Source: Antedon mediterranea | Lineage: Eukaryota; Animalia; Echinodermata | Length of the DNA: 64,000 nt | Assembly (NCBI RefSeq): GCF_964355755.1 | Contig: NC_092672.1 | Span: 25,116,437 to 25,180,436 of the forward strand | Direction: 5' to 3' | Shown here: one piece after another, positions 39,642 through 64,000 of the stretch | Position numbering within the stretch: position 1 is the first letter of the stretch | Layout of the letters: each line of letters begins with the position of its first letter | Notes under the pieces: model-generated | The model's database searches: none | The model's input: only the letters and a program-made list of their open reading frames with translations | Told to the model about the DNA's origin: nothing | Translations under genes and position numbers: made by a program

Positions 39642-39673
<32 letters not shown>

Positions 39674-44007: not shown

Positions 44008-44042
<35 letters not shown>

Positions 44043-44804
44043 TACACGACGCAAAAGTTTAATAGGTTTCGATGAGATTTTGTAACATCCCGGCAAACGC
44101 AACGATCTACCACCGGCGTAAATGGACAGATCGACGCATCTCATCTCCGGATAGACTTTGCACAAAGCTGTCATCATGGACGAGAGAACGTCAATGTTTT
44201 CAATCGGTCTCGGTAAACGTTGGTATACGTGTAAAGAAAACTTGTCGCTTCCTTGGCTCGAGTATACGTGTGGATTGTCGGGCAAATGGCCGAGCTCGGC
44301 CGAAAGTGCACGCTTGATGCTTTCGGCCGTTCTCAGGGCAGATTCATCGCTGCACTGAAGTCTGTTTGCATCGTCGATGTCGATCGGTATGTTGTGAATG
44401 TGGAGGTTTTCGTTAAACACTTCGCTGTACGACGACACGGAGCATGATTGAATACTACGCTCTAGTGCGGTCGGTGACGCAACCACAAAACTTCTACTGC
44501 CGCTGCCCGCTTGGCACATCTGAGATGCCAACACGGATATGCGTCTAGGTACATCGAGAGCGAAACAAGTCCACGCTCCAACGTCCCTACTGGCTGGAGG
44601 AGGTTGACACCGGGCGTACGTCTGTGCCACGGTATAGGCACGAGGAAGTTTAGCGTGACTGGCCAGCAGACCGACGGATGCGAATCGATCTGTGTTGTAA
44701 TAGTTGACGATACGCTGTTGAATGCCGTTCTGATGAGTGAAGCGATCGACGATCGTATCATCATCATCATCATCATCAGTGTCCTGGTAACAACTGTAGT
44801 CCAT
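43608..44804 (-). CDS. Viral archaeo-eukaryotic primase (herpes UL52 / PrimPol clade) with C-terminal Zn finger
   Basis: SEVF..NIPIDID (motif I), KFSLH (II), VDLSIY..GRSLRLP..YK (III) and C....H....C.S..C Zn finger. Confidence 0.88.
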
Positions 44805-45288
44805 GAATAAATTTTGCTATTTTCACACTGCTCTCTTTTGCCAGTATATTGTACTCTATAATCAAATCTAAATTGATCATGATCCATGCCTTTCGCAACT
44901 GTTTTATAAGAGCCCTAGGAACGAGTATGTGGTCTACATGTGAACCTCCTCCTCCTCCTACTCCTCCTCCAAATTCAAATCTTGGATAGAGAAGAAGAGG
45001 AACGTCTACTATACCACCACCACCACCACCACCACCACCGTCTGTTACCAATTCCTCCGCAACTACCTTGTCGCGAATAATGTGAAACGTGTAGTCGCAA
45101 TGTTCACTGGCAATTCGCCAAGCTTCGCACGTTGATCTTTTGCATAGTACGTCGAATTCATCCTGCATGGCCATATAACCACGAACATCGACTCTATCGA
45201 TTACATTCTCGTCACGATCGCAGGCGTCAGAAAAGTCACTGTCAAACGTCCAGTAGCGTCTCCACTCCAAGTACTTTTCTAACGACAT
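44776..45288 (-). CDS. Viral hypothetical protein
   Basis: 170-aa ATG ORF overlapping the primase start. Confidence 0.6.
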   Translation of the reverse strand: MSLEKYLEWRRYWTFDSDFSDACDRDENVIDRVDVRGYMAMQDEFDVLCKRSTCEAWRIASEHCDYTFHIIRDKVVAEELVTDGGGGGGGGGIVDVPLLLYPRFEFGGGVGGGGGSHVDHILVPRALIKQLRKAWIMINLDLIIEYNILAKESSVKIAKFIHGLQLLPGH

Positions 45289-46225
45289 GCTGTCAGAATA
45301 CTATCTGGACGCGGATGCAATAGAACGCGAATATTACCAGCACAGAATCGTCGCTTGCAAACGTAACGATATGGTGTACGTTTACGAGTCTTTAGTCACA
45401 TTTCAAACGGTGCCTGTACTTTTACCAACACCACCACGACTCAATTGGATTAAATTTCCAACGTTCCAGACGAGCGATGAAGTAGTTCGAAGAGCAAGAG
45501 AAATAGAAAGAGTCGGCTACGATCCCTATCCGTTCCTGGAATCTGTCGTTATGAATCGTCTATGGAACAGACTGAACGATCGCGTTCGTGTACTCACCGA
45601 TTTCAGAAGTCATGCACACAAACATAACTTGGCGTCGATAAAGTGTTTCGATCGTCTCTTTGTCTCCTTCGTACCAGCCATCCACATGCATTTGTTCAAC
45701 GTCGCACAGTCAACGTATAACGCACGCATACGAACGAGTGTAACGCTGGTGGGAAGAGTGTTGAGAGATTGGGGAAAAGGTGGTAGAGCCGACGAGTTTG
45801 TTAAAGCGTTACTGAAACCGTTGGTTCTTGAGACCGAAGCAGAGACGGGTATCGTGCAGTCGTTTCGACGATCATGTGGAATCTATAACCGAACGGTCAA
45901 GACAAAAAGGAACGTCGTCACAATTCAATCGGAGCCTATTTCGTGGACATTCAATTGGAACGATTGTCGATTGAAGCAACACGATCAACTTGTACTTTAC
46001 GAACGTGAAGATGAACGGTTAAAGTGGACGTGCTGCATGTTTTTCGACAGACGAGTACCCATCGAACGTATTCCAATAAATCTTCTCATTTCACTCATTT
46101 CGGTGATACACATTGAGAAGAATGGAGAAACGATCGATAGAGGCCTCACCTCGTGCTTCACGCGGTCGTGTAATTCATTATTGTCTAAGAGAATCATGAG
46201 AAGAATTATTAAAAAAAATATATAA
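45287..46225 (+). CDS. Viral hypothetical protein
   Basis: 312-aa ATG ORF. Confidence 0.7.
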   Translation: MLSEYYLDADAIEREYYQHRIVACKRNDMVYVYESLVTFQTVPVLLPTPPRLNWIKFPTFQTSDEVVRRAREIERVGYDPYPFLESVVMNRLWNRLNDRVRVLTDFRSHAHKHNLASIKCFDRLFVSFVPAIHMHLFNVAQSTYNARIRTSVTLVGRVLRDWGKGGRADEFVKALLKPLVLETEAETGIVQSFRRSCGIYNRTVKTKRNVVTIQSEPISWTFNWNDCRLKQHDQLVLYEREDERLKWTCCMFFDRRVPIERIPINLLISLISVIHIEKNGETIDRGLTSCFTRSCNSLLSKRIMRRIIKKNI

Positions 46226-46330
46226 AACGATTTATTGTAGCTTTTTTTTAAATTTATTTTGTTCGTCCAAGAGTCATTATAAAAAAAAAAACACAATGTA
46301 ACGCACGTCTTTGCTTTTGGTTTTATTTGT

Positions 46331-46377
<47 letters not shown>

Positions 46378-46665
46378 TTTAATTTAGATTATGGTAAAAG
46401 ATTTGTTTCAATTCATGAATCAAAGTAAACAATCCGATAAACAACATGTGTAATAGATAGATCATGAAAACACAGTTTCAAGATCTCTAGCGTTTATACC
46501 CGTTATCAATTCTTCACAATCACTATATATAAAAAAAAAAAAAAAAACAAACAGCAGCACATCGATGATTCCAATATACGTACCAACTATTGAGTAACAC
46601 AGTCGTCGTAACGGCAAACATGTTCGTAGTTCTATTGTGTAAAGGCAACAGTAAGTTTAAACGTG

Positions 46666-47637
46666 CTAGGTAGTAGGTAGACACGGACACTGAGAGAATC
46701 CATCCCATACGTTCATGCACGCGTCACACGTAATCAAATGGTCTTCTTCGTCGCTTACCACCGTCGCTGACGATTGTGGTGAATCAACAAAGATTATTGG
46801 CGAATCGGTAATCGATTGGTCATTCAATGTATTACTACTATACGTTTCTTCGCATAACATTGGATCCAAATCGATATGGTTCAACTTTCTTGTTATCTCA
46901 TGATCAACGATGTCATCATCATCATCATGATATTCCCGGGCGTTGTCGGCATGTAAACATTCTTCATTATTGTACTGCAACACTGGATCGTTTTCGTATT
47001 GTATTTCAGTCACTGTATCGTTGCGCGTGTACCAACAAGGACATTGACCGTTTCCGTCCCATGTCTGTAAACAGTGTTCGCATTGAAAGTGATCTGTCAA
47101 TTCTGCCTTATAGCTATTTTTCTTCTCTTCCTCAACGAACAGCACCTTTATACTATCGTTATCAATTGGCAAATCAATATTGTACAATCTTCTTGTCATC
47201 TCACCATCATCATCATGACATTCCCCGGCATGTAAACTTTCTTCATCACCAGCGTCGTACTGCATTTCAGTCACTATATAGTTGCAACAAGGACATTGAC
47301 CGTTTCCGTCCCATGCCTGTAAACAATATTCGCATTGAAAGAGATCTGTCAATTCTGCCATATAGCTATTTTTCTTCTCTTCCTCAACGAACAGCACCTT
47401 TATACTATCGTTATCAATTGGAAAATCAATATTGTACAATCTTCTTGTCATCTCACCATCATCATCATGACATTCCCCGGCATGTAAACTTTCTTCATCA
47501 CCAGCGTCGTACTGCATTTCAGTCACTATATAGTTGCAACAAGGACATTGACCGTTTCCTTCCCATGTCCGTAAACAATATTCGCATTGAAAGAGATCTG
47601 TTAATTCTGCCATATTTCTTTCCCAAACGAACAGCAT
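46666..47637 (-). CDS. Viral acidic protein with four CxxCxxxW(D/E)GxxQCPC modules; three lie in 252-bp tandem repeats
   Basis: Repeat anchors at 47079, 47331 and 47583 (252-bp period, frame preserved); fourth diverged motif CDACMNVWDGFSQCPC at the C-terminus. Confidence 0.8.
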   Translation of the reverse strand: MLFVWERNMAELTDLFQCEYCLRTWEGNGQCPCCNYIVTEMQYDAGDEESLHAGECHDDDGEMTRRLYNIDFPIDNDSIKVLFVEEEKKNSYMAELTDLFQCEYCLQAWDGNGQCPCCNYIVTEMQYDAGDEESLHAGECHDDDGEMTRRLYNIDLPIDNDSIKVLFVEEEKKNSYKAELTDHFQCEHCLQTWDGNGQCPCWYTRNDTVTEIQYENDPVLQYNNEECLHADNAREYHDDDDDIVDHEITRKLNHIDLDPMLCEETYSSNTLNDQSITDSPIIFVDSPQSSATVVSDEEDHLITCDACMNVWDGFSQCPCLPTT

Positions 47638-47696
47638 CTCTATACGACGATGCGTAATCAACTAACTAATGTCATCTCATTGCCTCTTTTTAAGTA

Positions 47697-47951
47697 CTAC
47701 AAATAGCCTCCTCGTAACAAAATAGAAAATTCGTCCTCGTACCCTAAACAATGCGGATCCTCGTAGCAAAAAAGAAATTCGTCTTCGAACTCAAGAAGAC
47801 CGTGCGGATCCTCGTAGCAAAAAAGAAAATCGTCCTCGAACTCGAGAAGACCGTGCGCATCCTCGTTGCAAAAAAGAAAATCGTCCTCGAACTCGAGAAG
47901 ACCGTGCGGATCTTCGTAGCAAAAAAGAAAATCTATCGATAGGTCCTTCAT
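47697..47951 (-). CDS. 84-aa microprotein with four tandem LxCxE motifs (51-bp repeat)
   Basis: ATG at 47951; (D/E)FLFC(Y/N)ED repeated four times, each followed by an acidic stretch. Confidence 0.6.
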   Translation of the reverse strand: MKDLSIDFLFCYEDPHGLLEFEDDFLFCNEDAHGLLEFEDDFLFCYEDPHGLLEFEDEFLFCYEDPHCLGYEDEFSILLRGGYL

Positions 47952-47985
47952 AGTGTTTTGCTTGACAAAAATAAAATATACATAC

Positions 47986-48016
<31 letters not shown>

Positions 48017-48463
48017 ATGTATGATGCAACATCCGTGATGGCAGCAGGGTGTAGACTGTGCTCGTATGACGTTGACAGTAAGCAGAGACAATTTTGCAAC
48101 AATGATCCTAGTTCACAAAACTATCATCCCGTGTTGCACGGTGAGCACATATTCGAAAAGTACGGCGGTAGAAATCAAAAAGAGATCCTTCAGAGTATCA
48201 CAACCAGCATAGCTACAATAGACACATCAATGAACGATATCACGTTGGACGAGGTTCGTCTTCATTTCGATCAGCACATTATACCCAGCTATCGTCGAGT
48301 GTGTGAAGAGCAATTGTTGATTTGCAGACGTTTAGAGAGATTCATGGCGGATACGGTGATGATGGAAGACGAAGTACCGTCACCGAGTGATTTTAAAACG
48401 TATAGAACCGTGTGTCAGGATACACAAAAACTTGCCAAAGAGATTGAGCAAATAAACGCTTAA
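48017..48463 (+). CDS. Viral small protein with CxxC...HxxxH putative Zn site
   Basis: GCRLC ... EVRLHFDQH; helical C-terminus. Confidence 0.65.
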   Translation: MYDATSVMAAGCRLCSYDVDSKQRQFCNNDPSSQNYHPVLHGEHIFEKYGGRNQKEILQSITTSIATIDTSMNDITLDEVRLHFDQHIIPSYRRVCEEQLLICRRLERFMADTVMMEDEVPSPSDFKTYRTVCQDTQKLAKEIEQINA

Positions 48464-48488
48464 TTTACACACGAGCACTTGCAATACT

Positions 48489-48851
48489 ATGAGTTCGATA
48501 TACATTCATTGTATTCATACACAGACAATCTACCGCATAATAAAATGTACTCGAGATGCAGAAAGCACGTTAGTTGAAATCGTTTTATTTTTTCTCTGTT
48601 GTGAAGGAAATGAATTTGTACGCACTGAACATCTAAAACCATCCAGATATCCGTCTTGGATCAATTCGATCGTTGTTCTAACTACCAGAAAATTAAAATC
48701 CATTCGACATGGGGCAGATTTTGTTAACTCACGGCAGCACAGTTTCACGAGTTTGCTTACGTTGGAAAGAAACAACGTCGTCGCGGGCTCATCAGCGGCT
48801 TTAACTGTAGTTAAGTGTAGTGAAGGCCAACAAACAAACCGTTCAAAATAA
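48489..48851 (+). CDS. Small viral hypothetical protein
   Basis: 120-aa ATG ORF ending at AATAAA. Confidence 0.4.
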   Translation: MSSIYIHCIHTQTIYRIIKCTRDAESTLVEIVLFFLCCEGNEFVRTEHLKPSRYPSWINSIVVLTTRKLKSIRHGADFVNSRQHSFTSLLTLERNNVVAGSSAALTVVKCSEGQQTNRSK

Positions 48852-49266
48852 AGGTGAAGAGAAAACGCAGACCAATTTGTTGTGTATTTTTTAATTGGTA
48901 GTGGAATAATAAAAAACAAAAACAAACATGTGCCTCAACCAATTCTTTATAATTATTATCATCATCATCATCGGTATTTGAGCACCAACTAAGTATTCGG
49001 TAGTTACTACTGGTTTTTTTTTAATACCACTTACGTTTTTGTCGGTCATGTGTATTACATAGTTTGTTACCATCATCAACGTCCACTCAGATAATTTACG
49101 TTTTTGCTTCTCTGGCCGTTGTTATTTGTATCGTTTACAGTACTACTAGCTGTCATCGATATTACAAACACACGCGCACAGTAATGAAATAAGAAGAAGA
49201 CATTAAGGTTTGTGGTGCATTTATTTTTACTTTCTTATGTTATACATGACATTTTACACAATTGTT

Positions 49267-49908
49267 TCACACCACCGTTGCTCCGTATTCGGCCATCAGT
49301 TGATCGCACGTGTCTAGTAATGGATCTTCAGGAAACTGCACCGGTTCAATTGCATGACAAACATTTGCTTCTATTTGATTGACGTCGGCACAGTCTGTTT
49401 CAAGATCACCATCAACATAATCCTGTCCGATCAATAGATTCAGCTTTCGTATGACTTCTGTAACGGTTTGTTTGTACGGTAAGTTTGCTCTTCTGGCCAA
49501 CATTTGACGATCCGCTTGCTCCTTCATAAAGTCTTGTTTGTTGATTTCACATTGAATTTTTAAAAGTTTGATCATCTCGGTCGCCCCCTTGTATTTGGAA
49601 CATAATTCCAAAGTTTCGGGCAGTTTCCTTCGCAACTGTTCATACTTCACAGTCATTTCAGCGAGTCTTGCCTTTAGGCTGTCTATCTCGTATCGTTGTG
49701 TCTCCTCCTTTACCACATCCCTATGCGCGTCCATGGCGGCATGTGTCAAGTCTTTGTACATGTTTTGCGGTAACGAGTTGGCGTACTTTTCGGCAGCGAT
49801 TACTCTTCCTCTCAGTCGATCTTGTTCTTGTAACATACTCAACTTATCAACTTGCATAGCTTCAAGTTCCTGTTTCAATTCCGCAATCATATCCTTTGAC
49901 TTTCCCAT
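49267..49908 (-). CDS. Viral coiled-coil protein with NEMO/optineurin/ABIN-type UBAN motif
   Basis: IKLLKIQCEINKQDFMKEQADRQML compared with NEMO [25 protein letters not shown]. Confidence 0.75.
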   Translation of the reverse strand: MGKSKDMIAELKQELEAMQVDKLSMLQEQDRLRGRVIAAEKYANSLPQNMYKDLTHAAMDAHRDVVKEETQRYEIDSLKARLAEMTVKYEQLRRKLPETLELCSKYKGATEMIKLLKIQCEINKQDFMKEQADRQMLARRANLPYKQTVTEVIRKLNLLIGQDYVDGDLETDCADVNQIEANVCHAIEPVQFPEDPLLDTCDQLMAEYGATVV

Positions 49909-49992
49909 ACCGAACGAATCTGAATGATTTTTTTTTTTTGCTCTGACACGTTATTATATAGTGTGTGTGTGTGTGTGTGTGTGTGTGTCGCG

Positions 49993-50979
49993 TCAAGAAA
50001 AGTGATACGGTCGAAAGTATCTGTTCATAAACAGTTCAATCTCGGGACTGCGAACGTTACCGTAGAAATCGGTAGCAAACTCTCCGATGGCTTTCACCAT
50101 ACACGGCGTCACACAACCGTTTCTCGATCGACAAACAAATCCCATAGACTTTAGTTGATTGGGAATATAATGATCGTTGCTAAAAAACAGCGAAGGATAT
50201 GGATAGTTAAGAGCGTCGGTTACTCCGGGTAGCATGCCTACGGCCAAGTACAGTTTAGTACCCGCTTTTGCATTCAATCGACACGATTCGTGAACTCCAG
50301 ACAGTGTTGTAATCATCTTACCGAAATGTTGCGTTGTTATGCACGGATACGATTCGTTCGTAAACCATTGATTGCCACCGAAAGAAAGCTGATAGCCGAT
50401 AGGCAGAAAGTAAGAGAGGAAATCTCTAGGAGTTTTCATGCGTGCCAGTACGGCTCCAAAGCTGTCGAATCCACGTCGTTGACACACCGTTTTGATGTAT
50501 TCGTTGTGCGGCACGTCGCGATCGAAACAGTCGTTGATGTCGAGTGTAACCTCTTCTTTGATGATGTTTTGGAGGTGAGGCAACGGCACCGTTGCCTTGT
50601 CCGTACTCGCTTTAAAACTGGGTTCGGGTAACGCGTAACAGTTTACAGGAGCCGGTGTTGCAGTAGACATTTTCCTTTGACCGTTGTAAAGAAACAGCAT
50701 ATCGCCTCGATTGAATTGAATGGATCTGTTGAAGAATTCGTGATACGTTGTTATGTCACGAACACCGTCCGTATCCTTTTGTGCGTGAGTTGACGTTGGA
50801 TACATAAAGTTTCTTCTATCGCCGAAATTTGGTATACGCGACGTACCGGCCGTCATGTCTGTCTCATCGAGTCTGTACTCGCCACGACGTTCTGTCGCTT
50901 TGATCGGTGAATTTGGCTGTATGCCCGTGTACCATCTAATACCATCACCGGCGGCGTAAGGATGGAATCGTGATACCAT
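49993..50979 (-). CDS. Candidate second capsid triplex subunit
   Basis: ~328 aa; RGDMLF..FLPIGY..ITTQHFG..AGTKLYL..KAIG beta-strand/Gly pattern similar in spacing to the 27002-27925 protein. Confidence 0.35.
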   Translation of the reverse strand: MVSRFHPYAAGDGIRWYTGIQPNSPIKATERRGEYRLDETDMTAGTSRIPNFGDRRNFMYPTSTHAQKDTDGVRDITTYHEFFNRSIQFNRGDMLFLYNGQRKMSTATPAPVNCYALPEPSFKASTDKATVPLPHLQNIIKEEVTLDINDCFDRDVPHNEYIKTVCQRRGFDSFGAVLARMKTPRDFLSYFLPIGYQLSFGGNQWFTNESYPCITTQHFGKMITTLSGVHESCRLNAKAGTKLYLAVGMLPGVTDALNYPYPSLFFSNDHYIPNQLKSMGFVCRSRNGCVTPCMVKAIGEFATDFYGNVRSPEIELFMNRYFRPYHFS

Positions 50980-51043
50980 TATTATTTGTGTGTGTGTGCG
51001 TTTTACGAAAACAAACAAAGAAAACCGGGACGTTAACAACAAG

Positions 51044-52870
51044 ATGGAAGAGAAACGTTTGCTTGTCAATCATCACAAAGCGCGTGAAGATCTAGCATAC
51101 GTCGGTCAACGACCGAGAACGTTGGGCTACAAAGGATCTGAACAGATTCGAGTATGTACATCGAAAGACAAAACGATTATGGTTTGGATAATACCCACGT
51201 ACGAGAGTAAAAAGCCTAAAGGGTGCGTAAACATTATTGGAATGGCAAACGATCAACTTGTTGACGCGTTGTTGACGTTCATGAACACGAATAGAAACTC
51301 ATACTTTGTCGCCACTCTTTCCTATCAGGATCGAATCTCTTGCTTGAGTATAGCCGAGAAGATTGGCTGCAAGGACACCATCTGCGTGTTTACGTCTGCC
51401 GTGTACGAGATGTGCATGCACGATCTGCTGAAAGCCAGAAGAACCGCCGACAGAATTTCATCTTGGTCGTTGACGAATGTCGTCGACTCGGCCATTTGCA
51501 GAACGTTTGGCAAAATTAAACTGCACGAACAGGAACTCAAGTGGGAAGAGTTGATGACCTGGCTGGATACGGCCAGACACGATCAGCCGACAGAAGTAAA
51601 ATCGCACGACAGTGTGTACTATATGCCAGAATCGTATCTTTGGCATCTTGTGCACACATGGATTAACAAAAACGGCAAAACGGAACATCGAAGAAAACAA
51701 CACGCTCTCGTTAAACTCATACGAGGCAGATTACTGAACGATTCGGAAATGCTGTACAGAATCGCGTTTGTACGTCTCTCCTCCATCAATCAACTGGTTC
51801 AAGATTTGAGACATTATGTAAAACAAGTGTTTCATCATCATCGATTGAACGAGCAATCGGCGTTGGGTGTTCGTCACAGTCATCGACAAATTGCCACTTT
51901 CGGAACAACAACGCCACCTCCACCACCATCAATACCACAACAGCAGCTGGAAGAATACGTACACGTTACCGCTTCGTTCATGACGGCACCGTTCTATCGA
52001 ACTACCGTAGTTCGGAATCTGGCGTACACAGTATCTCCAGCAGACGAGGAGAACGCGACGATGCGTCTTCATCGATACAATGCCATCGTTGGAACGTTCG
52101 TAAGATTGCAAAACTCTACAACGAAGCGTACAGACGAATCGGTATGCCTGACGAGAATGAACGAAGATTTGTTGATACTAAGCGGTGGTGGAGCTAAAGA
52201 ATTTGAAACGTTCGATTTGGATAGTGGTGCGTGGAGCGTGGAACAGTCATTGGATACGGGCGTCGGCGGTGAATTGTACACGTCGCACGCAACGTGTCAA
52301 CACGGCCGCGACCTATGCGCATGGTACGTGGATCAAGCGGGTGATCATCTTCTGGTGATGTTGCGACGTACCCGAACAACGTGGAACGTCCTACTCAGAC
52401 ATCCAATTTCCATGGACGAAAACGAAAAGCAAAAGAATGTGAAACGTACCAGTGTGCATTCGTTCTTTGACGCAAACACGATTGTAGCGTTCCACGGCAA
52501 CACCGTCATCACTGTACACGTACCGTCGGGAAGGTTCGTGAAAACAACGGCACCATTGCATCCTACGCCCGGTGAATGGATAGGCGAGGTGAAACACGAA
52601 AACACTGTTCAACGCATCGGCTGTAACGGCATTGTAGACACTTTTGTTTTCCAACAGTCTGTTGCTGCTGCTGCTGCTTCTTCTGCTGCTGTCGACGAAT
52701 TTCGAATACAGATTGTCAACAGAAAAATAAAACTCGAGCACGGTACTATTGTTGCGTGCGCACCGCTTCTCTTTCCCGATGGTACAGTGCGACCGACAGT
52801 GCTGCATGCATCCGTTTTAAATTCCACAAAGAAACAACACAGATTCTCTCTCTTTCGACGATCAAGAAGA

Positions 52871-52901
<31 letters not shown>

Positions 52902-52915
52902 AGCTGAAAAGTTGA
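51044..52915 (+). CDS. Viral BTB-BACK-Kelch-like protein (putative Cullin-3 adaptor)
   Basis: VDALLTFM..CLSIAEKIGC (BTB end), ESYLWHLVHTWI..R..LVKLIR (BACK), LILSGG..FETFDLDSGAW..SHATC (degenerate Kelch). Confidence 0.65.
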
Positions 52916-54391
52916 CGTGAAATCATGTTCAGAAACGTCGAGCATTTCGGCGAGCATACGCCGTCCACAGCCTGATCGAAAGTAGGGCAGAAGAGGCATC
53001 ATCATTTCAATGTCCTCAAACGCTCTCTTTGTCCACGGTTTCAGCGGTACGCCGTATTCTTTCATCCAATCGTCGAGCAGTGAACTGACGATGAAATCTT
53101 GCCACGATGCCGAACAATCGCTGACAATCTGCTGTAACATTTTCGCTGGAAGCGCAGACGTTGTTCCGTGGCGTGCAACGTTGCCGGCGCCTCCCCCTGA
53201 CACCGGTATTGATCCCAATAGAACGTTTCTGACGAGAACATCGAGAGAGGCGGATGCCTGTTCGAGTCCCGATTGAGTTTTTACATCCAATCTGGACGCC
53301 AACATACTTCTCTCATCACCAACATCCTCGGTCGTCATAACCGGTAACAAGTGTCGTTCACGTCTTTTATCGAAAAGAAAACTCTTTCTCAACTTTTCCT
53401 TCTCCTTTCTGCATCTGACTAGATCGCCGATAAGTTTCTCTTTTTCGTCTACTGTGCTCGTTTTGTTAACGTCGTCCAGTAGAGAAGTTGCCATTGGAAC
53501 GCCCATGGTTCTGGCTTTGATCAGATTCGCTACGGCTGCTCCGGTAACCAAGTCTTCTGTGTTGTTGTTGTTGTTGTTGTTGTTGTCATCTTCGCCATCA
53601 TTCATGCCGTTAGATTTCGATTGAATTTTAGGACCGGTCACAATAATGTTCGTGGCCGAATTGCGCACGGCCGCCAAATGATATTCGGTCAAGAGACGTA
53701 CGTTTTCACAGCTGGCGAGCAGATTTGATAGAGCGCTGTGCATTCTACCGTCAACGCCTGGCCGATGAACGACAACGACACGCAAACGAGATTGGCTTTT
53801 AATCGATCTAGCATACAGATCACCTTCGTCGTCTCTGAATACTAAACATTCGTCCATGTCGACGGCAACCGGACGACCATCGACACACGTCGTCACCACA
53901 AATCCATAGATCCATATACATCGAATGGTGTCGCGTATGAAACGTTCGATGGATTCCTTGTACGTTTGACAAAAGACGGCAACTGTACATGAAGTCGGCG
54001 ATGGTATTTCGACGGTTGTGCACTGCGTTCTAACGATCGCTTCGGCACTAGCACGCATTCCATGTTCAAACATTGATTTTACCGAGATGGATGCACACAG
54101 TCTATTGAGTATACACATGCACATTGGCAACTGATCGAACGTTCGACGCAATAGTTTGGCGTGCTCTTCGTCGAGTAGATAAAACGTTTTGTTCTTAAAC
54201 TCTTCATTGACGGCCGTCATGCATGTTTTGCGTTTTTCAAACACATGTCGTGCATAGTCTTTTGCGTCGAGGAACATGTTAGCGTCTCGAGTCTCTGAAT
54301 CAATGGATGCTCTAATGCTGTCAACAGTCTTTTTGGTCACGTTACTATCGACCGTAGTCAGGGGCATTACTTTCCCGCCCAGAAGATTCAT
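52862..54391 (-). CDS. Candidate portal protein
   Basis: ~510 aa; FIRDTIRCIWIYGFVV..GRP (wing-like), PGVDGRMHSALSNLL followed by a long helix and NIIVT (stem/clip-like); lies near the terminase. Confidence 0.5.
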
Positions 54392-54522
54392 TTTGGCCAG
54401 AGGTGATGTGATTTCCACCGATTCGATTCACTTTCAAACAATTGACTACTTTGAGTATTCGTTGCCGATAACCACACATTTCAGAAGCAGCAGCAGCAGC
54501 AGCAGCAGCAGCGGTCATAAAA

Positions 54523-55185
54523 ATGTTGATTGATGCTTGGAAAAGATTTACGGATAGTCTGCCTAGTGGACTTGTCGAAAAGTCAAAGCCTATCTTGATA
54601 ACGGACGACTTGTGGGGTGCAACGCTGACGGGTGACGGTCGAACAGAGATCGATCTCACGCAATTGTATGCCGTCACAAAATCGGCTGGAATTTCAATTA
54701 ACGTATCCATGCCAAAAAGTACAAACAAGAAAATCAAATATATTTTATATATCGAACCTTCAAAAGAAGAAGAAGAAGAAGAAGAAGACGATGACGACGA
54801 TGAGGAGGAGGAGGAGGAGGAAGAGGAGGTGGTGATGGGTGTGAACGGTACTAAAGAATTAGAGATGGCCGAGTGTACGTACGAAACGCCAGAAACTATA
54901 CATTATAAATTCTATGTTCACACTTCTTTCTGGTTACCAGCCATAATCTCAAAGTTACGTAAAAAGTTTGGCGTCAACTTTCAAAAGTTGATTATTGCAC
55001 CAAGATTAACGGAGAAAGGTATTGAGCTGTTTGTTGCAGTAAATGTGCGCGAACGACGAACGTCCTCCACCTCCTCCTCCTCGTCGTCCTTCTCCTCAGC
55101 ACGACGAGTACGATCGAAATTGATGATTAAGATGATGATAATTGTGTTTGTGGCTGGAATCGGCTTCTTGAAATATCGAACATAG
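54523..55185 (+). CDS. Viral tail-anchored membrane protein with acidic tract
   Basis: C-terminal TM MMIIVFVAGIGFL preceded by a basic/Ser stretch. Confidence 0.65.
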   Translation: MLIDAWKRFTDSLPSGLVEKSKPILITDDLWGATLTGDGRTEIDLTQLYAVTKSAGISINVSMPKSTNKKIKYILYIEPSKEEEEEEEDDDDDEEEEEEEEEVVMGVNGTKELEMAECTYETPETIHYKFYVHTSFWLPAIISKLRKKFGVNFQKLIIAPRLTEKGIELFVAVNVRERRTSSTSSSSSSFSSARRVRSKLMIKMMIIVFVAGIGFLKYRT

Positions 55186-55266
55186 ACATGTATCGATTTT
55201 AAAAGCAAATAGACTCGAGAAGTAGACAAAAGAAAGGAAGTTGAAACTGTTTTTTTTTTTTTTTTT

Positions 55267-55909
55267 TTATTGATAAACTTTATTAGAAAGAAAGCAAGTC
55301 CACGCCAACCACAGAATAAACGTCATGGCAAGATCATCACGAACACCAGCCGTCTTTCCACTTATCGTGATTTTACCGTCGGATTTTACGAGTCTTCTGA
55401 AGTTACACAGTTGATCCTGTAAAATGCTCATCTGTCCGTCATCGATGTCTTGTGCAAACACGACTCGATCGTTCTCCAGCAACATTTGTGACAAATGTAC
55501 CAGATTTCCTTTGTCTCTTGTCCAAATTCCGACACACCTACGCCCGTCCGTTCGACGTCTCTCCTTTTCGAAAGATATGTCTACTGACGTACCGGCAAAA
55601 CGATCCGTTACTTGCTTTGCCATGCGAGCGGCGTGTGCGTGCGATGTATTACGTTCTACGTACACACGAACTGGCATGAATGTCAACTGATTGTACGTAG
55701 CCAAGGTCCTGTTCACCGTGTCTATTATTAGTTGGGCGTGCATGTCCAGTAAAGAATCCATACGATCCATATGTGCAACGTGGTGTTTCAAAGCAAGTAT
55801 CTGCGTAGTAAAATAAAGGTTATTACGATTAATAAATGCTTTTCTTTTCTTTTTTTCGTCTCAACGTATAGTAGGGAGAGAGAGAGAGAGTGAGAGAGAG
55901 AAACTGTAT

Positions 55910-55991
<82 letters not shown>

Positions 55992-57265
55992 AAAAGAAAA
56001 GGAAAAAGAGAATCAATTGGTAGCGTAATGTTGACGAATGCATTTCATCCCGTGTATTGCAATCTGGAATTTCTACAAGAACGACAAAGAATGTTTTTCG
56101 AATGGAAGAGCGCTATAGATAAGGCGGCTATAACGGACGAGATTAACGCATCCGCATTACCTATTGTCGAAAAGATTGTGAGAACGTGTGGTAGAGAGAC
56201 AGTGTTGTTGGTGGAAATGAATGATGCAACCGTACAAGATATGGTCGAACAACGACAAAAACAATCGATTCTGGCTTACACAAGAACGGCAATGATGGCC
56301 GCCACGCAATTTGAATTGGGTCGACAACGAGAGATATCGCAATTGAACACGTTTCTCTTACAGGCAATAGAAATGTTCAATTTGACATTTTTACCAGATG
56401 TAGAACGTGAGTACAGAGCATCAACGCCAACCGATAAACATTGGATAATAGATAGCATTCGCAATATCATCGTACAGCTGTTGACCAACACGTACGATCA
56501 ACCAATGTGGCATTCCGTCGGATGCGGATCACCGTTGGCCGTGGCCGTTGCAACGATTCGAAATCGAGTACAGAATACCAGTTGTTGTGGTGGTCTGTCT
56601 ACGATTCGGGCCGGGCTCCCAGGGCACGCTACGTACGCGCTTCGAAGAATTATGGAGAGAAGAGGCGCCGCGTGCAAAATACCATCCGTTCGACTTACCT
56701 GCCTAACGTCCGACGTCGTTAACACACCGGCAACCAATCCAATGCCGGACACGTCCGACGGAGTTGGATCGACGGCAATCAACAGACCCGATGAGAAGCC
56801 AGATCTTGTAGTGGATCTTCTTTCGTCTGAAAACAGTTTGGTTAGCAATTTACCGGAAAAAAGTCGTTCGGCGAGTGAAGACGGTGAACAGACGGGAATG
56901 CCCATACACTCTAGTTCATAGCTTCCGGTGGCTATGAGGTTCATCATCTGCTGAACGACATTACCGTCGTTTCCATCAATGTGTTCCGGTACCAAATGTC
57001 GCCTGTGAGCGCACACTGTTCGCGTTCCTTTCTCGAAGCACGCATCGCACAGGTACGACTGAGTAATGTATTTAACCAGTGCACGTCCATCGTGTTTAAT
57101 ATTCACAAACTCTTGCGACCAGTGATCACTCGAAGTCATCGACGATGTTAAAAGAACCGACACGTTCTTAGGTTGAAAGATTGGCAGAGTTGATAGCATA
57201 GCCGTTTGCTTTATCCACGGATACTCGTCCATCCATCCCATATCACAACCGGTTCCTCTTGAAGC
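55267..57265 (-). CDS. Herpes-type terminase large subunit (UL15/UL89/ORF29-like), last two exons: 56699-57265 and 55267-55800; the Walker A exon lies upstream, probably beyond the window
   Basis: ttttcag|ASRGTGCDMGWMDE (Walker B)..LTSS (motif III)..YLC..C..C.H..P..SYELECMG..IAVDP..SGIG..VRQ|gtaagt, then cgcag|ILALKH..VYVERN..QLCNF..ISGK..RDDLAMT. Colinear with HSV UL15 exon 2; both exons are phase 0. Confidence 0.93.
55913..55986. repeat. (TA)n microsatellite, preceded by (GA)n, in the terminase intron
   Basis: Pure TA run of about 70 bp. Confidence 0.95.
56028..56921 (+). CDS. Viral hypothetical protein nested antisense in the last terminase intron, overlapping the preceding exon
   Basis: ~297-aa ATG ORF; its last 223 nt overlap terminase exon 56699-57265. 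Confidence 0.65.
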   Translation: MLTNAFHPVYCNLEFLQERQRMFFEWKSAIDKAAITDEINASALPIVEKIVRTCGRETVLLVEMNDATVQDMVEQRQKQSILAYTRTAMMAATQFELGRQREISQLNTFLLQAIEMFNLTFLPDVEREYRASTPTDKHWIIDSIRNIIVQLLTNTYDQPMWHSVGCGSPLAVAVATIRNRVQNTSCCGGLSTIRAGLPGHATYALRRIMERRGAACKIPSVRLTCLTSDVVNTPATNPMPDTSDGVGSTAINRPDEKPDLVVDLLSSENSLVSNLPEKSRSASEDGEQTGMPIHSSS

Positions 57266-57283
57266 CTGAAAACAAAAATAAAG

Positions 57284-58180
57284 ATGACAACAGCTGCTCT
57301 GAACGCGTATCTACAAGCAAATCGTTTCGACATATATCACGTGGACGAACTTCACGAATGTGTACCGAATAGATGTACGTTCGTGCAACCCATGCAAGAC
57401 GGTGAGAATTTCGTGTGCATGTCGTCGCTACGCACGCACACCTGTACATTGTCGGCAGACTGCGTCATGGAAAATTTAGATCACAACACTCGAAGATGCG
57501 CATTGACTGGTAAAGAATTCTATACAGACGAATATGAACCGATTGTCGTTGGACTCGATACGCCGCTATACGACAACATGCAAGAGGTTAGAAAGACGAC
57601 AACGACGCGAAATAAACACGATAAAATGTTTCGTTTCGGCACAACCGTACGTCAGGTTCTGGAACGATTGTACGATCGAAAGAAACGATGCAAGTACAAC
57701 AACGTAAATTTCTTTGAACACAAGGCCTGTGAAATGATTTTGGAGAACATGGGCAAACAGAACATCGTGTCCGTAATCAGATACACCTTTCTAAAACACG
57801 TATCAGCAAACAGATTACCGGATACAGCGCTTCCAGAGGAAAACATGCTGGACGACGTGGTAGACTTTATTTTTGACGTTATGTCTGTGTTTATGTACTA
57901 CTCGACGTTACAATATTCCAAGAAAGACTTTCTACTCAGCAACGGTCACGAAACGGTCGTGTACTTACTAAAGAGCACGTTGAATGGTATTCGTTCGGCG
58001 GAAAGCGTCATTCTAAAACCACGCTTTCCTCAACTGAAACCCATGCCAGGTGATCGGTTGATGTTTCCGATATTTCAGGTGTCGACCTCTCAACTGACAG
58101 CGTGCTCGAGGTTGTTACAGAGCATGGCGAATGAAAAGATTTGTCGTTATCATTTGGCAAAATTAAATCGAGAATCTTAG
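57284..58180 (+). CDS. Candidate UL92/ORF31-like late-gene transcription factor nested in the terminase intron
   Basis: HEC..C.F...FVC....HTC....C.....RRCALTG Cys/His pattern, as in the HCMV UL92 and KSHV ORF31 N-termini. Confidence 0.6.
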   Translation: MTTAALNAYLQANRFDIYHVDELHECVPNRCTFVQPMQDGENFVCMSSLRTHTCTLSADCVMENLDHNTRRCALTGKEFYTDEYEPIVVGLDTPLYDNMQEVRKTTTTRNKHDKMFRFGTTVRQVLERLYDRKKRCKYNNVNFFEHKACEMILENMGKQNIVSVIRYTFLKHVSANRLPDTALPEENMLDDVVDFIFDVMSVFMYYSTLQYSKKDFLLSNGHETVVYLLKSTLNGIRSAESVILKPRFPQLKPMPGDRLMFPIFQVSTSQLTACSRLLQSMANEKICRYHLAKLNRES

Positions 58181-58454
58181 TACGTTTTCGTTTGTGTTTT
58201 TTCTTCTTGATTACGTTTTCTTTCTTCAACAACGATTTTGATGATGATGATGATTGTGTCGTTGTTGTTGTTGTTGTTGTTGGTGGTGGTGTTGATGATG
58301 ATGAATTTACAGTTGATGTGGTCATGTACCAGAAATTACGTTGAATTAGTTCATCGGCCGATCGACGCCATGACATTTTCTCGTTCTTCTTCTTCTTCTT
58401 CTTCTTCTTCTTCACACGACGTACGTATATGCGCAACATGTCATTAATGACATA

Positions 58455-61400
58455 ATGGTAAATTCGAAGACAATCATCATCATCATCATGTATACATCAT
58501 CACAGACCGAAACGTTGATGGACACGACGGCTGTTAGACAGAGGCCGACAAAGAGAAAAGGACGGGACGATAATAAAGAGGTTGGCAAACAGTCGAAAAA
58601 AATGACGCCGTATCTTGGACGAGTTCTCGACGAACTCGCAGACCCGACGCTCACAACAACGACGCTCATGAGAATGGTATCGACTGCTTACAGATCCGGC
58701 TACCCTCCAGATGGATCCATGCTGGGTCTAAAAGCGCAGCTACTTCGAATGGACGGCTTTTCAAAACAGTTTTCAAACGCGTTCGTTTCTGGTCGCATAG
58801 TTGTTGTCGACGCAAAGAATCTTAAAAGCTTGTACGAAAGTCTGTGTGAAATAATCAAAATGATTGAAATCATCACAGAAATCAACAAACATGCTGACAT
58901 GAAAGAGAGAACGCGTAAATTGTGCGACAGTTTGTTTCTCGGCGGTAGCTTTCTAAATTCGAAACAAGTTCGGGTCTCAATCGTCATCAAAGACGGTAAT
59001 CTAATACAACAAAAGATACACTTTGCAAAACATCTCAAGACAATGACTGCCGTTCCAGGTATACATTCACAGTCGCCTGTAATAGGCGGTGGCGGCGCAG
59101 GAAAAGAGAAATCGTTTCTACAGCTAGGAAAGTTTCAGGCCGGCAATAGACTGACAATGAAAGATTTTTTTCTGAAACACTACACATCTACGCAAGGTAA
59201 CAATTCCAGCGATCGTGATGCTCTCTTCAACGAAACCGGATTAAGTAAAGACGATTTCGAGAGATTGTTGAAAGCGTGTACGCACATTCAAAACGTGGAA
59301 ATTGGAACCACGTTTCGATTGATGAAATACGTGTGCGCGCTGTTCGACAAAAGACCGAATCTGTACATGATTTTCGCTTGCCTCGTACTACATCGCATAG
59401 TTCATCACATCGGCGATGCTACACTGCTCGCCAGAGCCGACATGTGGAATCTCGTGTTGGGACAGAGTGAAGAGATCACAAACAGTTGGAACTTTGAAAG
59501 AATCGACGCGGAAATCACGGCAGCTGAGAGTAAATGGAACGCGGCACATGCTCCGTGGTTGACCGTTGACTCGGCGGAACGTCCCACCGTCGAATGGATC
59601 AGAAAGTTGGCAAAAAAGATACAAGAGGACTTTGCGCCATACGAAAGAAATGCTTTGGACATTGACTTTGACCATTTGTTTGGTGCGCTCGTGTCGTACA
59701 TTAAAAAACACGAATTTCTCAAGATTCGTCTAAGAGATCATGCACTCGTTACTGGAACGATCGACGAACTTAAACCGTTTCAATGTGAACGACCTCCGTT
59801 CGGAACGCCCACTGCACAAGATGACATGCCATGGAGAGACTGTTGCCATTACGAGGCGAACGTATGTGCTATTCTACTCAACGCTCTTTGCAATATACCG
59901 GTTAGATCTCCTGAATCAACGCGCAAGATTTCACTCGACACGGCCACCGAAGGCATGGCAATGGTCGAACAAAGTCGGTTCGAAATAACGCAACTCAGTT
60001 ACCAACATCTGCTAAGTTTGGAGGCTAAAGCGCGTGAACGTGCCGCCAACATCACTACTACCGATTCTGAATCTCGTATGCCGGTGATGAACACAGAATC
60101 TGCTGATAATATGTCGGTGGTGCAGCAGCAGGTGAACACCGAAACTGTTGACGACGAGGCGCGTACTACAAACGCATCAGATACGCTTTCTGTTCTCGAA
60201 CCTCTGGTCATCATGGAAGGTATGCCGGCAAATACCACCCAAGACACACTACTTTCTGTGCTTGAATCTGGTACGACGCCGGCGGTGATGAACACCGAAA
60301 CTGCTGACGCGCTTACTACTCACACCGATGATGCAATTTCTGTGCTCGAATCTATTGACATAGCAAGCATGCCGGCAAACACCACCCAAGACACACTTTC
60401 TGTGCTTGAATCGGGTACGACGCCGGCGGTGATGAACACCGAAACGCGTACACACACCGATGATACAATTTCTGTGCTCGAATCTATTGCCATAGCAAGC
60501 ATGCCGGTGAACACCGCAATTGTACACGAAGAAGAAGAAGAAGAAGAAAAAGAAGGTGACGGTGATGATGATTTACCTAGCATCGGTCAACTGCTCGCTC
60601 CTTACGTGAACACGGCCAACAGCATCTTACCTTCAACAAACGACGATTTGCCCATCTTGGACGAAGACACCGTTCAAAGATTGCGTGAAATCTCGGACGA
60701 TGTGAACGCTCACAATAGTACAATGCACGTAAAACTCTACGATATTGAAGATTGGATATCATCTCAGCCCGATTCTAATGCCGAATCCCAATCGCAGATT
60801 GAAGTCATGCAATGGACAAAGGCAAAAGCCGAAGAAGAACGACGGACGGCTTTGAACACGCTCGAGACTCAACGAGTAGAACACGAAGAGTTCAAGAAGA
60901 CCATGGCCACCAGGAATGCAGAGTCGACGAGAGAAAATGAAAAAAAGACGCGAGTGAGCGACGCAAAAATTAAAGAGTTGGAAACGAAACTGGACAAGAC
61001 CGAAGGCGAACTGCGAAACAGTAAACGTTTGGTGGACGAAATGAAGCAACAACTTCACGACACCGAAATGCAAAATGTCGACGAGTCAGACACTCTAAAA
61101 GCCTTGCTTAACAAAAAGACGGACGAAGCACGTGCACATGAATTGATTTTGAAGCGCAAGCAATCCGAATTGATATCGTCAAAAGAACACGTTGACGAGC
61201 AGACGAGTCGTCGCATCGAAGCGCTCACAAACGAAGTTGGTGAATTGCGCGTGCTGAACAGAAGATTGGACACGGCCAACACGCTTTCGGAGACAACGTA
61301 CAGGCAGCGAATTCAACAGTTGGAAACTGATTTGCAAACGTACGAAGAAAAGAGCAGATTGTATCAGTCGAGCGTACAAAAAAATGAACAGTTGATGAGC

Positions 61401-63503
61401 CGACATGTTGACGATTTGGCATCGCAACTTGATGCCGAAAAAATAAACTCTGCTTCGTTAAAACATGATGCAGAGAACATGTTAAAATCTCGAGAGCAGG
61501 CGTATTTGACCGATCTGAGAAAATTGAACAATGAGCTGCAAAACGAGAAGAAAAACGTACAGAAACTCGGTCGTGACTTGCAACAGACCACCGATTCGGC
61601 GCATCTGCAAAGAGAACAACTCAACAATAAACTGATGAACGCAAACACGACGTTCACCATCAAGCTGGACGAAATGAGAAGGGAGATTGAAGAACAGGAC
61701 AAGAGGCAAAACTCGGTTCAACACGAAAAGAATCTAGATGCGGTTCAACACGAAAAGAATCTAGATGATTTGAAACAAACTCTTGTCGAGACCGAACAGA
61801 AGGTAGCGCAACTGAAACGAGATGGCGACGAAAAAATAGATGAATGGAAGAAACGTGTTGAAGAAGTGAAGATGGAGCGTGACAAAGCAGCTCAACATCG
61901 TGTCCTGTTGGAAAGACAGGTTCGAGAGTTGACGAGCAAAGCTGCAGAGGACAATTTCACTCGAAAACGTTTAGAAGAGCGACTGAAAAAGTCAATCGAG
62001 ACACACGCCGAGTACGTGTCGGAAGCTAAACAGAGCACGAAGAAAGAGACTGAAAAGAAGATGCTCGACATGTTGACACAGGCCGAGAAACAGCACACGC
62101 GGGAACGTGACGAGGAACGTGATCGACTCGAAAAACAACTGAAATCTGAAGTAACTAAACTAGGACAAAAACACGACGCAGAGATGAAACGTGTCGCGAA
62201 AGAACACAGCACTGCTATACAGCGACAGTTGACGTCGGCAGCGAACGCGTCGAGCAATCACAAAACAGAATTGAAGTCGACAATACGTGATCTAGAAGAA
62301 GCGCGAAAAGCTCGTGACTCGTTGTGTACGCAAAACGCTAAACTTCAAGAGAAGTTTACTGCCAAGGAAAAAAGTTTAGCTGAAACACATCGGTTATCCG
62401 ACGACAAGAATACAGAAATATCCTCTCTTGCCGCTCAGGTAATTATTTTAAAAAATCACAGCTTGACTGCACAAAAGCGCATCGAAAGTCTCGAAAAGGA
62501 ATTGGAACATTCGCAGCGAAAAGTATCCGAATCCTATCTGAAACTGTCTGAATTCATAAAGAATCAAAGCGACGGAGGCGGTGGAGGAGGAGGAGATGGT
62601 GGATCTGATGTGTTACATGAAAGAATGAAAGATATCGAAGCGTCATTGGAGCAAGAAAAGCGCCAAAATCTATATAAAGATGGACAGATTGCACATTTGA
62701 AGTCTGATGTTAAATTTTTAACTAGTAAAGTTGAAACTGCAAACAGCGAACGAGAACGACAGGTTGCAAACTTACAACGGAAACTTTTCAATAAAAAACG
62801 TACGTCGCATTCGTTATATACGTTACATCATGATGAAGATGAAGAGGATAAAGTGGAGGAGGAAGAGATATACGATGAAGCTGAGTACAATCATGACTAT
62901 TACGGTGATGAACATGATGATGATAATGAGCATAATGGTGGCAATGAGGATGATGATGAATACAAAATACAATTTGTTGTCGATTACAGTCCAAGTAATA
63001 CGTCCTATCATCAGTTATTCGGAACCGGAGAGTTTACTTTCAACGAAGTGATTAATCAAGCAAGACATTACATCAATTCCACCGATGATGAAGATGTATC
63101 AACAGTAGAAGCAGCAGCAAAATTGACCGACAGATGTGGCTCGACATATTTTGCGCCTATGGTCGTACGCAAAGGCAATGTAACCGAAGGCGATAGAACT
63201 GTAATGAAAGTGATTTCGTTCATGGGAAAAATACCGGGCGTGACATTGGTAAAACCGAGTCAAAGTAGCGTTCCCATTTGTTTTCTTGCGTCAGACAATT
63301 CGTGCAAGTATCGCCGTAGAGGTGATGCACGATACGTAATTTTTGGCAAGGATATGCGTATAGATTGGTCGGAGAAAGATTGGTATGTACAATTGGTCGG
63401 ACGTATTCTCGAAAACAATCTTAGACACAATCCAAAGGTAATCACTGCAGCACCATGTTTGACCCAACAGACGATCCAGTTACCAGCTCCGATAACTTTC
63501 TAA
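58455..63503 (+). CDS. Very large viral protein (1682 aa): helical N-domain, Thr/acidic repeat linker, long coiled coil, C-terminal globular domain; tegument/scaffold-like
   Basis: Uninterrupted ORF; heptad-rich region about aa 790-1440; internal DNA duplications at ~60220-60515 and 61713-61768. Confidence 0.85.
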   Translation: MVNSKTIIIIIMYTSSQTETLMDTTAVRQRPTKRKGRDDNKEVGKQSKKMTPYLGRVLDELADPTLTTTTLMRMVSTAYRSGYPPDGSMLGLKAQLLRMDGFSKQFSNAFVSGRIVVVDAKNLKSLYESLCEIIKMIEIITEINKHADMKERTRKLCDSLFLGGSFLNSKQVRVSIVIKDGNLIQQKIHFAKHLKTMTAVPGIHSQSPVIGGGGAGKEKSFLQLGKFQAGNRLTMKDFFLKHYTSTQGNNSSDRDALFNETGLSKDDFERLLKACTHIQNVEIGTTFRLMKYVCALFDKRPNLYMIFACLVLHRIVHHIGDATLLARADMWNLVLGQSEEITNSWNFERIDAEITAAESKWNAAHAPWLTVDSAERPTVEWIRKLAKKIQEDFAPYERNALDIDFDHLFGALVSYIKKHEFLKIRLRDHALVTGTIDELKPFQCERPPFGTPTAQDDMPWRDCCHYEANVCAILLNALCNIPVRSPESTRKISLDTATEGMAMVEQSRFEITQLSYQHLLSLEAKARERAANITTTDSESRMPVMNTESADNMSVVQQQVNTETVDDEARTTNASDTLSVLEPLVIMEGMPANTTQDTLLSVLESGTTPAVMNTETADALTTHTDDAISVLESIDIASMPANTTQDTLSVLESGTTPAVMNTETRTHTDDTISVLESIAIASMPVNTAIVHEEEEEEEKEGDGDDDLPSIGQLLAPYVNTANSILPSTNDDLPILDEDTVQRLREISDDVNAHNSTMHVKLYDIEDWISSQPDSNAESQSQIEVMQWTKAKAEEERRTALNTLETQRVEHEEFKKTMATRNAESTRENEKKTRVSDAKIKELETKLDKTEGELRNSKRLVDEMKQQLHDTEMQNVDESDTLKALLNKKTDEARAHELILKRKQSELISSKEHVDEQTSRRIEALTNEVGELRVLNRRLDTANTLSETTYRQRIQQLETDLQTYEEKSRLYQSSVQKNEQLMSRHVDDLASQLDAEKINSASLKHDAENMLKSREQAYLTDLRKLNNELQNEKKNVQKLGRDLQQTTDSAHLQREQLNNKLMNANTTFTIKLDEMRREIEEQDKRQNSVQHEKNLDAVQHEKNLDDLKQTLVETEQKVAQLKRDGDEKIDEWKKRVEEVKMERDKAAQHRVLLERQVRELTSKAAEDNFTRKRLEERLKKSIETHAEYVSEAKQSTKKETEKKMLDMLTQAEKQHTRERDEERDRLEKQLKSEVTKLGQKHDAEMKRVAKEHSTAIQRQLTSAANASSNHKTELKSTIRDLEEARKARDSLCTQNAKLQEKFTAKEKSLAETHRLSDDKNTEISSLAAQVIILKNHSLTAQKRIESLEKELEHSQRKVSESYLKLSEFIKNQSDGGGGGGGDGGSDVLHERMKDIEASLEQEKRQNLYKDGQIAHLKSDVKFLTSKVETANSERERQVANLQRKLFNKKRTSHSLYTLHHDEDEEDKVEEEEIYDEAEYNHDYYGDEHDDDNEHNGGNEDDDEYKIQFVVDYSPSNTSYHQLFGTGEFTFNEVINQARHYINSTDDEDVSTVEAAAKLTDRCGSTYFAPMVVRKGNVTEGDRTVMKVISFMGKIPGVTLVKPSQSSVPICFLASDNSCKYRRRGDARYVIFGKDMRIDWSEKDWYVQLVGRILENNLRHNPKVITAAPCLTQQTIQLPAPITF

Positions 63504-63613
63504 TCCTAATCAATCTTCTCTTGACCAATCTAATAGCGAATACTCGTCGACATGAGCAGAAGAAGGAGAAGAAGGAAGAGGAGAGACAACTGATTACCTC
63601 CATATTTTAGATT

Positions 63614-64000
63614 ATGTCGTTTGATTTATGGAAAAGTTTAGAGTCACGCGTTGAACGTAGATGGATAGAATGGTCTCATCATCATCATCATCATCATCAC
63701 GACGACGACGACGAGGAAGAAGAAGAAGAAGACAACGCTTACTTGAAAGAATTGTTGAAGGAATTCAAAGGAAATTTGGAGAGTATATGTACCAAAAAAG
63801 GCGATGAACAAGATGTTCTCTATTACGCACGATGCATTGCGCTCATCGAACGTCTCTTGTTCGACACAACCACGATAACGTCCGAGTGTTGTACAATGGC
63901 CGACATGGACAGTATATTGAAACGCAATGTTCTCTTTGCCTGGACCAATGTGCACTCTTTCAAAATTCTCGAAAGATTATCAACAATTTGGAGATTTGTG
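63614..64000 (+). CDS. Viral hypothetical protein, truncated by the window edge
   Basis: Frame MSFDLWKSLESRVERRWIEWS(H)nDDDDEEEEEEDNAYLKELL.. stays open to base 64000; absent from the ORF track because it has no stop. Confidence 0.6.
   Translation, partial: MSFDLWKSLESRVERRWIEWSHHHHHHHHDDDDEEEEEEDNAYLKELLKEFKGNLESICTKKGDEQDVLYYARCIALIERLLFDTTTITSECCTMADMDSILKRNVLFAWTNVHSFKILERLSTIWRFV

Follow-up and report, generated by a model that had tools for sequence, protein, structure and literature searches.

A putative UL92-family gene set head-to-head with an exon of a probably spliced herpesvirus-type terminase gene in a herpes-like viral region beside animal-like DNA

The window (the whole stretch of 64,000 nucleotides analysed here) is likely to carry the 3' part of a spliced, herpesvirus-type terminase gene, with a UL92-family, TFIIB-like gene head-to-head with one of its exons and a second antisense gene beside it, the whole forming a cassette that comes from an early herpesvirus. 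The footing of this proposal is the homology of the exons, the splice signals, which are conserved in L001, a contig of a distant virus, and the homology of the UL92-like gene as traced through its relatives, all of which could be demonstrated at the level of sequence.

Bases 1 to ~22040 of the window are AT-rich and repeat-rich, host-like DNA, in which a unit of ~60 bp forms a tandem array at 14000-15265 and TAGGCCTA, which we take to be a motif of echinoderm DNA, occurs 12 times, compared to no occurrence in the viral part. At ~22040 there is a sharp switch from host-like to viral DNA, and the herpes-like, gene-dense region that follows (22085..64000, assigned to neither strand) was delimited by coding cover (92% in 22085-64000 versus 1.7% in the host-like part), GC (0.44 versus 0.34) and CpG o/e (1.43 versus 0.5). 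The window looks like the sequence of a large DNA virus that was either inserted into animal-like DNA or joined to it in assembly. An Ig-domain gene is present among the ORFs of the viral part (by Pfam) and fits an animal host, and the label "invertebrate" for the virus is plausible. Endogenous herpesviruses branching between the Ortho- and Malacoherpesviridae have been described from starfish and ribbon-worm genomes (available part of 10.1101/2025.04.19.649669), and the virus in the window may be of the same kind.

Both terminase exons lie on the minus strand and were analysed separately throughout. The middle exon (exon A, 56699..57265, -, 567 nt, 189 codons), recognised by its alignment with the duck enteritis virus (DEV) UL15 gene and by its splice signals, encodes R-G, Walker B (GWMDE), the TSS motif, a CxxC and the first nuclease Asp (AVDP). 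The last exon (exon B, 55267..55800, -, 534 nt, 177 codons and the stop), recognised by matches to PF02499 and to HSV UL15 in the PDB, encodes the C-terminal part of the nuclease with VERN and RDDL motifs, and AATAAA is present at 55266 and 55279. The 3' end of intron 1 (57266..57283, -) consists of a polypyrimidine tract and AG, the acceptor being identical in place in L001, and on the plus strand these same bases form the A-rich leader that precedes the UL92-like gene; this acceptor reads ...tttttgttttcag/GCT and the exon from 57265 reads ASRGTGCDMGWMDE. Intron 2 (55801..56698, -, 898 nt, phase 0, GTAAGT...YAG) lies inside the nuclease domain, with its boundaries kept in L001, a CAG/gtaagt donor at 56699/56698 and an acceptor of ...tactacgcag/ATA at 55801/55800, and it contains the greater part of an antisense gene as well as runs of (GA)n and (TA)n. 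These microsatellites are found at 55872-55988, upstream of the nested gene, and not in L001. The coordinates given by the original prediction were all correct, including the exon start at 57265 and the intron at 55801-56698, and all the junctions are in phase 0. The antisense ORF does open with an ATG at 57284, only 19 nt away from where the exon starts, and has 10 Cys/His within residues 1-85.

Splice signals of this kind are sparse, with five GTAAGT sites and 34 strong YAG acceptors (strong meaning at least 11/14 pyrimidines) on the minus strand over the 42 kb of viral DNA; acceptor 2 of the window, with 10/14, is slightly under that bar, and there are in-frame rival AGs at 57311, 57299 and 55849. 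The best argument that the splice signals are not due to chance is their conservation in L001. As far as sequence analysis can take it, the presence of canonical phase-0 splice signals on the two terminase exons is confirmed. An exon carrying Walker A is absent from the window (six-frame regular expressions gave one match only, in a non-coding frame, and Pfam searches of 123 further window frames gave no terminase N-terminal match) and was also not found upstream in L001; no full-length spliced terminase relative was seen among 2484 longer candidates, which is weak evidence.

The last exon matched PF02499 weakly (E 1.2e-3), its orthologue in L001 passed the cut-off of this family (E 3.9e-6), and a profile built from the two had HSV UL15 as all 4 of its 4 PDB matches (best E 0.009). 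The acidic triad of the RNase H-like nuclease was located at D166 of exon A and at E49 and D155/156 of exon B. Single exons searched against the PDB by phmmer gave no terminase, and neither did the exon A profile. As the middle exon had no match in the family libraries, it was compared with the DEV UL15 locus, which was located through the acceptor printed in the accessible text of PMC3079670. The exon A profile (window and L001) aligned with residues 3-182 of DEV UL15 exon II (E 1.2e-7), with residue 3 on residue 3 and gap-free for 66 residues; the pairwise score of 59 against DEV was reached by 0/500 shuffles (the L001 score by 1/500), and the exons open on A-S-R-G here and on S-L-R-G in DEV exon II at the acceptor. 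The frame-consistent DEV donor (GTAAGT) is in phase 0 after codon 345 and yields the 739 amino acids stated in PMC3079670. The UL15 donor printed in that paper misfits the DEV frame, being 211 nt off (L002 9284 versus 9495). The DEV alignment and the donor frame together place intron 1 at the UL15 codon, bearing out the earlier claims of terminase identity and of an intron at the UL15 position, and the comparison with IcHV-1 that had been suggested alongside them gave, in IcHV-1 exon 1, a candidate GTGAGT donor in phase 0 at the corresponding position, after SSSPN. That a split near Walker B is common to ortho-, allo- and mirusviruses has already been argued (PMC12768974, accessible part), and a 2026 review describes the split terminase gene structure as conserved (PMC13595911, likewise in part); the case for the antiquity of the Walker B split has already been made in print for allo- and mirusviruses.

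The locus of one relative was available for comparison, on the 10.6-kb contig L001, which carries the UL92-like protein P0005. Order and strands in L001 are as in the window (last exon, antisense gene, middle exon, UL92-like gene), with protein identities of 52% for exon A, 43% for exon B and 29% for the UL92-like gene. The exons begin with the same residues at both acceptors (ASRG and ILAL), and a GTAAGT donor makes the middle exon again 567 nt long, while intron 2, at 676 nt, is unlike that of the window. In L001, 40 nt separate acceptor 2 from the ATG of the intron-2 gene, a gap that the microsatellites widen in the window, and the spacing in the two loci indicates that each acceptor has an antisense gene facing away from it. 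The other 30 window ORFs had no match in L001 at E<=1e-3, the last 915 nt of L001 (AT-rich) hold no gene next after the UL92-like gene, and more loci, sought in viral contigs, a metagenome and genome contigs, were not found. L001 4332-5138 (-) was tried as exon 1 on account of a faint TerL_ATPase match (E 0.13) and was rejected, being without GKT and downstream of the terminase; it has a P-x-R-R motif and is possibly a degenerate ATPase paralogue.

The ORF facing the middle exon (57284..58180, +, 298 aa) was assigned to the UL92/ORF31 family through the PF03048 matches of its relatives, its Cys/His pattern and its structural model, in agreement with the original prediction, although its own PF03048 score of 20.7 is just under the curated cut-off of 21. 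This cut-off was exceeded by 3/11 scanned relatives (P0004 at 34.7 bits, P0005 at 33.9 and P0006 at 23.5), which align to the window ORF near full length with blastp E values, taken from a 20-protein set, of 1e-21 to 1e-31. HMMER with the UL92-like ORF against 1.84 billion representatives gave 12 matches, one of which (P0010) was a false positive due to LRRs and was excluded from the alignments. The protein is predicted to have a Cys/His N-terminal domain, a linker and a helical, TFIIB/cyclin-like C-terminal domain; C26, C31, C45, H52, C54, C60 and C72 are invariant in 10 aligned relatives and mark a putative zinc-type domain. For the modelled C-terminal domain, TFIIB took ranks 1 and 2 among 48,161 chains and cyclin folds made up most of the top 30, a TFIIB-like fold which matches the placement of UL92 at TFIIB's site by AlphaFold 3 (PMC12197705). 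A single-sequence model of the UL92-like protein was unusable (pLDDT 37).

Foldseek against BFVD returned, among its top 8 matches, two alloherpesvirus ORF68s, one UL92 and one viral TFIIB, none of them significant: black bullhead herpesvirus ORF68 at rank 1 (E 0.017, prob 0.57), wood mouse herpesvirus UL92 at rank 5, the salmonid herpesvirus 2 ORF68 homologue at rank 7 (E 0.11) and a marseillevirus TFIIB at rank 8. A poor model got E 0.029 on unrelated proteins in such searches, and as the matches are non-significant they carry weight only in which proteins appear. Foldseek gave nothing against the PDB at E<=1e-3, the ESM Atlas gave no usable match, and PHROGs and NCBIfam were uninformative. 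No vPIC partner family was found by Pfam among the 35 window ORFs, the rest of the genome being outside the window.

A second conserved antisense gene, missed by the original prediction, is found in intron 2 (56028..56921, +, 297 aa), its last 223 nt overlapping the middle exon. Its counterpart in L001 is at 7540-8169 (24% identity over 156 aa, E 4.5e-12), it has no Pfam family, and by numbering it is the positional counterpart of IcHV-1 ORF70. It was also considered as a paralogue of the UL92-like gene, which was rejected (hhalign probability 0.4). The gap between acceptor 1 and the UL92-like gene is 19 nt in the window and 70 nt in L001, and no ATG ORF of >40 aa lies there in either, leaving no room for UL91. 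After the UL92-like gene comes a low-complexity/coiled-coil ORF of 1682 aa (58455..63503, +, from the ORF list), presumably inside intron 1, which as a whole has no Pfam family at E<=0.1, hence no herpes one, and no match in L001; UL93 and UL94 were looked for at this place, and the next two window ORFs have no Pfam match. The original prediction had supposed that both intron position and nested-gene order may be shared with beta- and gammaherpesviruses, and this stands for intron position; for gene order it is not supported in that form, since one gene (UL92) is common to both and no UL91, UL93 or UL94 was found.

Elsewhere in the viral part, an ORF of 1091 aa (23661-26933, -) has two short motifs at residues 315 and 1005, NGSER and GLQEDS, which resemble motifs of RNA polymerase second-largest subunits, and the 509-aa ORF directly downstream of the terminase (52862-54391, -), without a library match, presumably follows a portal-like pattern, judged by eye. 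Candidate host-interaction genes, all from Pfam, encode the Ig-domain protein (30628-33057, -, E 4e-19), a repeated Cys-finger protein (46666-47637, -), a NEMO-like coiled coil (49267-49908, -) and a BACK/Kelch-like protein (51044-52915, +). By eye, there are also a primase-like ORF (43608-44804, -), an XRN/FEN-like ORF (39756-41255, -, with Pfam XRN_N at E 0.009) and a PD-(D/E)XK nuclease-like ORF (22998-23789, +).

In the mechanism that we propose, a minus-strand transcript from outside the window would bring the Walker A exon and would be joined to 57265 by splicing, either in trans or in cis across >6.7 kb, the exon there supplying the R-G and Walker B residues; trans-splicing of the terminase has been inferred for ranid herpesviruses (PMC3230846, available text). 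Host splicing would build the terminase mRNA, and removal of intron 2 would complete the RNase H-like nuclease. The UL92-like gene would be transcribed from the opposite strand, which means that its promoter would have to lie inside the terminase exon. Its A-rich leader would be complementary to the polypyrimidine tract of the acceptor, and by this overlap the two genes would be held together, which would explain why the pair persists. The UL92-like product would act as UL92/ORF31 does, at TFIIB's place on viral late promoters. The KSHV terminase is reported to potentiate late gene expression (PMC10138851, accessible part), and by analogy with KSHV a functional tie between the terminase and the UL92-like gene is plausible.

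The cassette was most likely inherited from an early herpesvirus, and the slot kept in the window and in beta- and gammaherpesviruses suggests that the pairing is likely to be very old. We suggest more tentatively, as a possibility, that a TFIIB-like UL92 gene in head-to-head orientation behind terminase exon 2 was an ancestral cassette of the Herpesvirales, kept here, in beta- and gammaherpesviruses and, as the orphan ORF68, among alloherpesviruses, and lost in alphaherpesviruses.

Herpesviruses generally pack antisense genes behind this acceptor, and a UL92-related gene could have gained the slot independently here and in beta- and gammaherpesviruses. The slot does take different genes, as 51 nt behind the DEV acceptor stands an ORF of 684 aa (UL17 according to the available part of PMC3079670), UL91/ORF30 stands first in the beta/gamma block, and in the 2 mirusvirus genomes listed the UL92-like genes are, unlike that of the window, 17-62 kb from the terminase pieces. 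Independent gain is nevertheless unlikely, given that the slot is kept in L001 despite 29% protein identity, that UL92 stands second in the beta/gamma block, where it overlaps ORF30 (PMC10138851, accessible part), and that alloherpesvirus ORF68 is placed before exon 2 (ORF69) by numbering (PMC3230846, available text) and came top of the fold search.

The gene product could also serve a virus-encoded RNA polymerase as its TFIIB-like factor, and not host Pol II in a vPIC of beta/gamma type. The NGSER and GLQEDS motifs of ORF 23661-26933 (-), the lack of a vPIC partner among the window ORFs and the RNA polymerase columns alongside UL92 matches in the mirusvirus tables point this way, but that ORF has no notable Pfam, PHROG, NCBIfam or PDB match to a polymerase subunit, GDK and DFDGD motifs are absent from the window, and a polymerase of the virus's own seems improbable as the partner. 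It is highly improbable that the terminase pieces are separate or decayed, unspliced ORFs of an old insertion: exon 1 is outside the window, intron 2 has microsatellites and each piece has an internal ATG (57241, 55770), yet the splice signals are at the same codons in L001, a start at ATG 57241 would lose the conserved R-G, and the viral part is 92% coding. The preferred reading is a spliced terminase with an inherited, UL92/ORF31-like neighbour.

UL92 has so far been treated as one of six beta- and gammaherpesvirus late-transcription factors, and its presence in the same terminase-intron slot of a deep-branching herpes-like lineage would give a testable identity to alloherpesvirus ORF68. If ORF68 is UL92, the TFIIB-like gene, together with its linkage to the terminase, would be older than the herpesvirus families; if the ancestral cassette is true, so would virus-directed late transcription, and the second intron with its gene (ORF70-like, perhaps MING-1-like) would count as another ancient feature. 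The viral pre-initiation complex would have a far earlier origin, and gene order and intron position could be used as characters for rooting the Herpesvirales, where the sequence signal is nearly gone. Compared to the original prediction, one shared gene and three exons are corrections and the ORF68/ORF70 parallel is an extension.

Among known systems, beta- and gammaherpesviruses (HCMV UL89 with UL91-UL94; KSHV and BoHV-4 ORF29 with ORF30-33) are like the window in having an intron just before x-x-R-G and Walker B and an antisense UL92/ORF31-family gene near the acceptor, following the layout in the available part of PMC3079670, which places four antisense genes in this intron (R91-R94 in RCMV, ORF30-33 in BoHV-4). 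They differ in that the window is without UL91/ORF30 before the UL92-like gene, with UL93/UL94 not found after it, in protein size (298 aa in the window versus 194-230, PMC12197705 Table 1), and in that the window has an extra intron carrying its own gene. Alphaherpesvirus UL15 (HSV-1, DEV) has the identical acceptor codon and phase, but its intron holds UL17/UL16, and alphaherpesviruses are described as without UL92 (PMC4893493, in the part available).

Mirusviruses are like the window in having a terminase split near Walker B, in their case trans-spliced, and a gene-carrying intron in the nuclease region (MING-1) (PMC12768974, accessible part), and their hosts are protists, unlike the animal-like DNA here. 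Two mirusvirus genes are listed as PF03048 matches (supplementary file 10, accessible part), and the orthogroup of one of them spans 313 genomes, which argues that UL92-like genes are older than beta- and gammaherpesviruses. Abalone and amphioxus terminases are reported to be intronless, unlike that of the window (PMC2994540, in part), annelid herpes-like terminases are known (PMC6950620, in part), and malacoherpesviruses and invertebrate herpes-like sequences are possible kin, judged by their descriptions.

Alloherpesvirus ORF68 and ORF70 were not among the HMMER matches, as far as matches without names can tell. The available main text of a 2026 structure survey of SalHV-1 mentions no UL92, ORF79 or ORF81 (PMC13030845), there are no occurrences in the AciHV-3 and EsHV-1 supplements, and no literature linking UL92 to allo- or invertebrate herpesviruses was found in a search whose coverage took in few subscription journals. 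In IcHV-1 the exons of the terminase correspond to ORFs 62, 69 and 71 (PMC3230846, available text), and alloherpesviruses (IcHV-1 62/69/71; SalHV-1 ORFs 72/80/82) are like the window in having at least three exons and, by numbering, one ORF between exons 2 and 3. In IcHV-1 this numbering puts ORF68 before exon 2 and ORF70 in intron 2, which is the layout of the window, and in its three-exon layout with an intron-2 gene the terminase locus looks closer to alloherpesviruses than to beta- and gammaherpesviruses.
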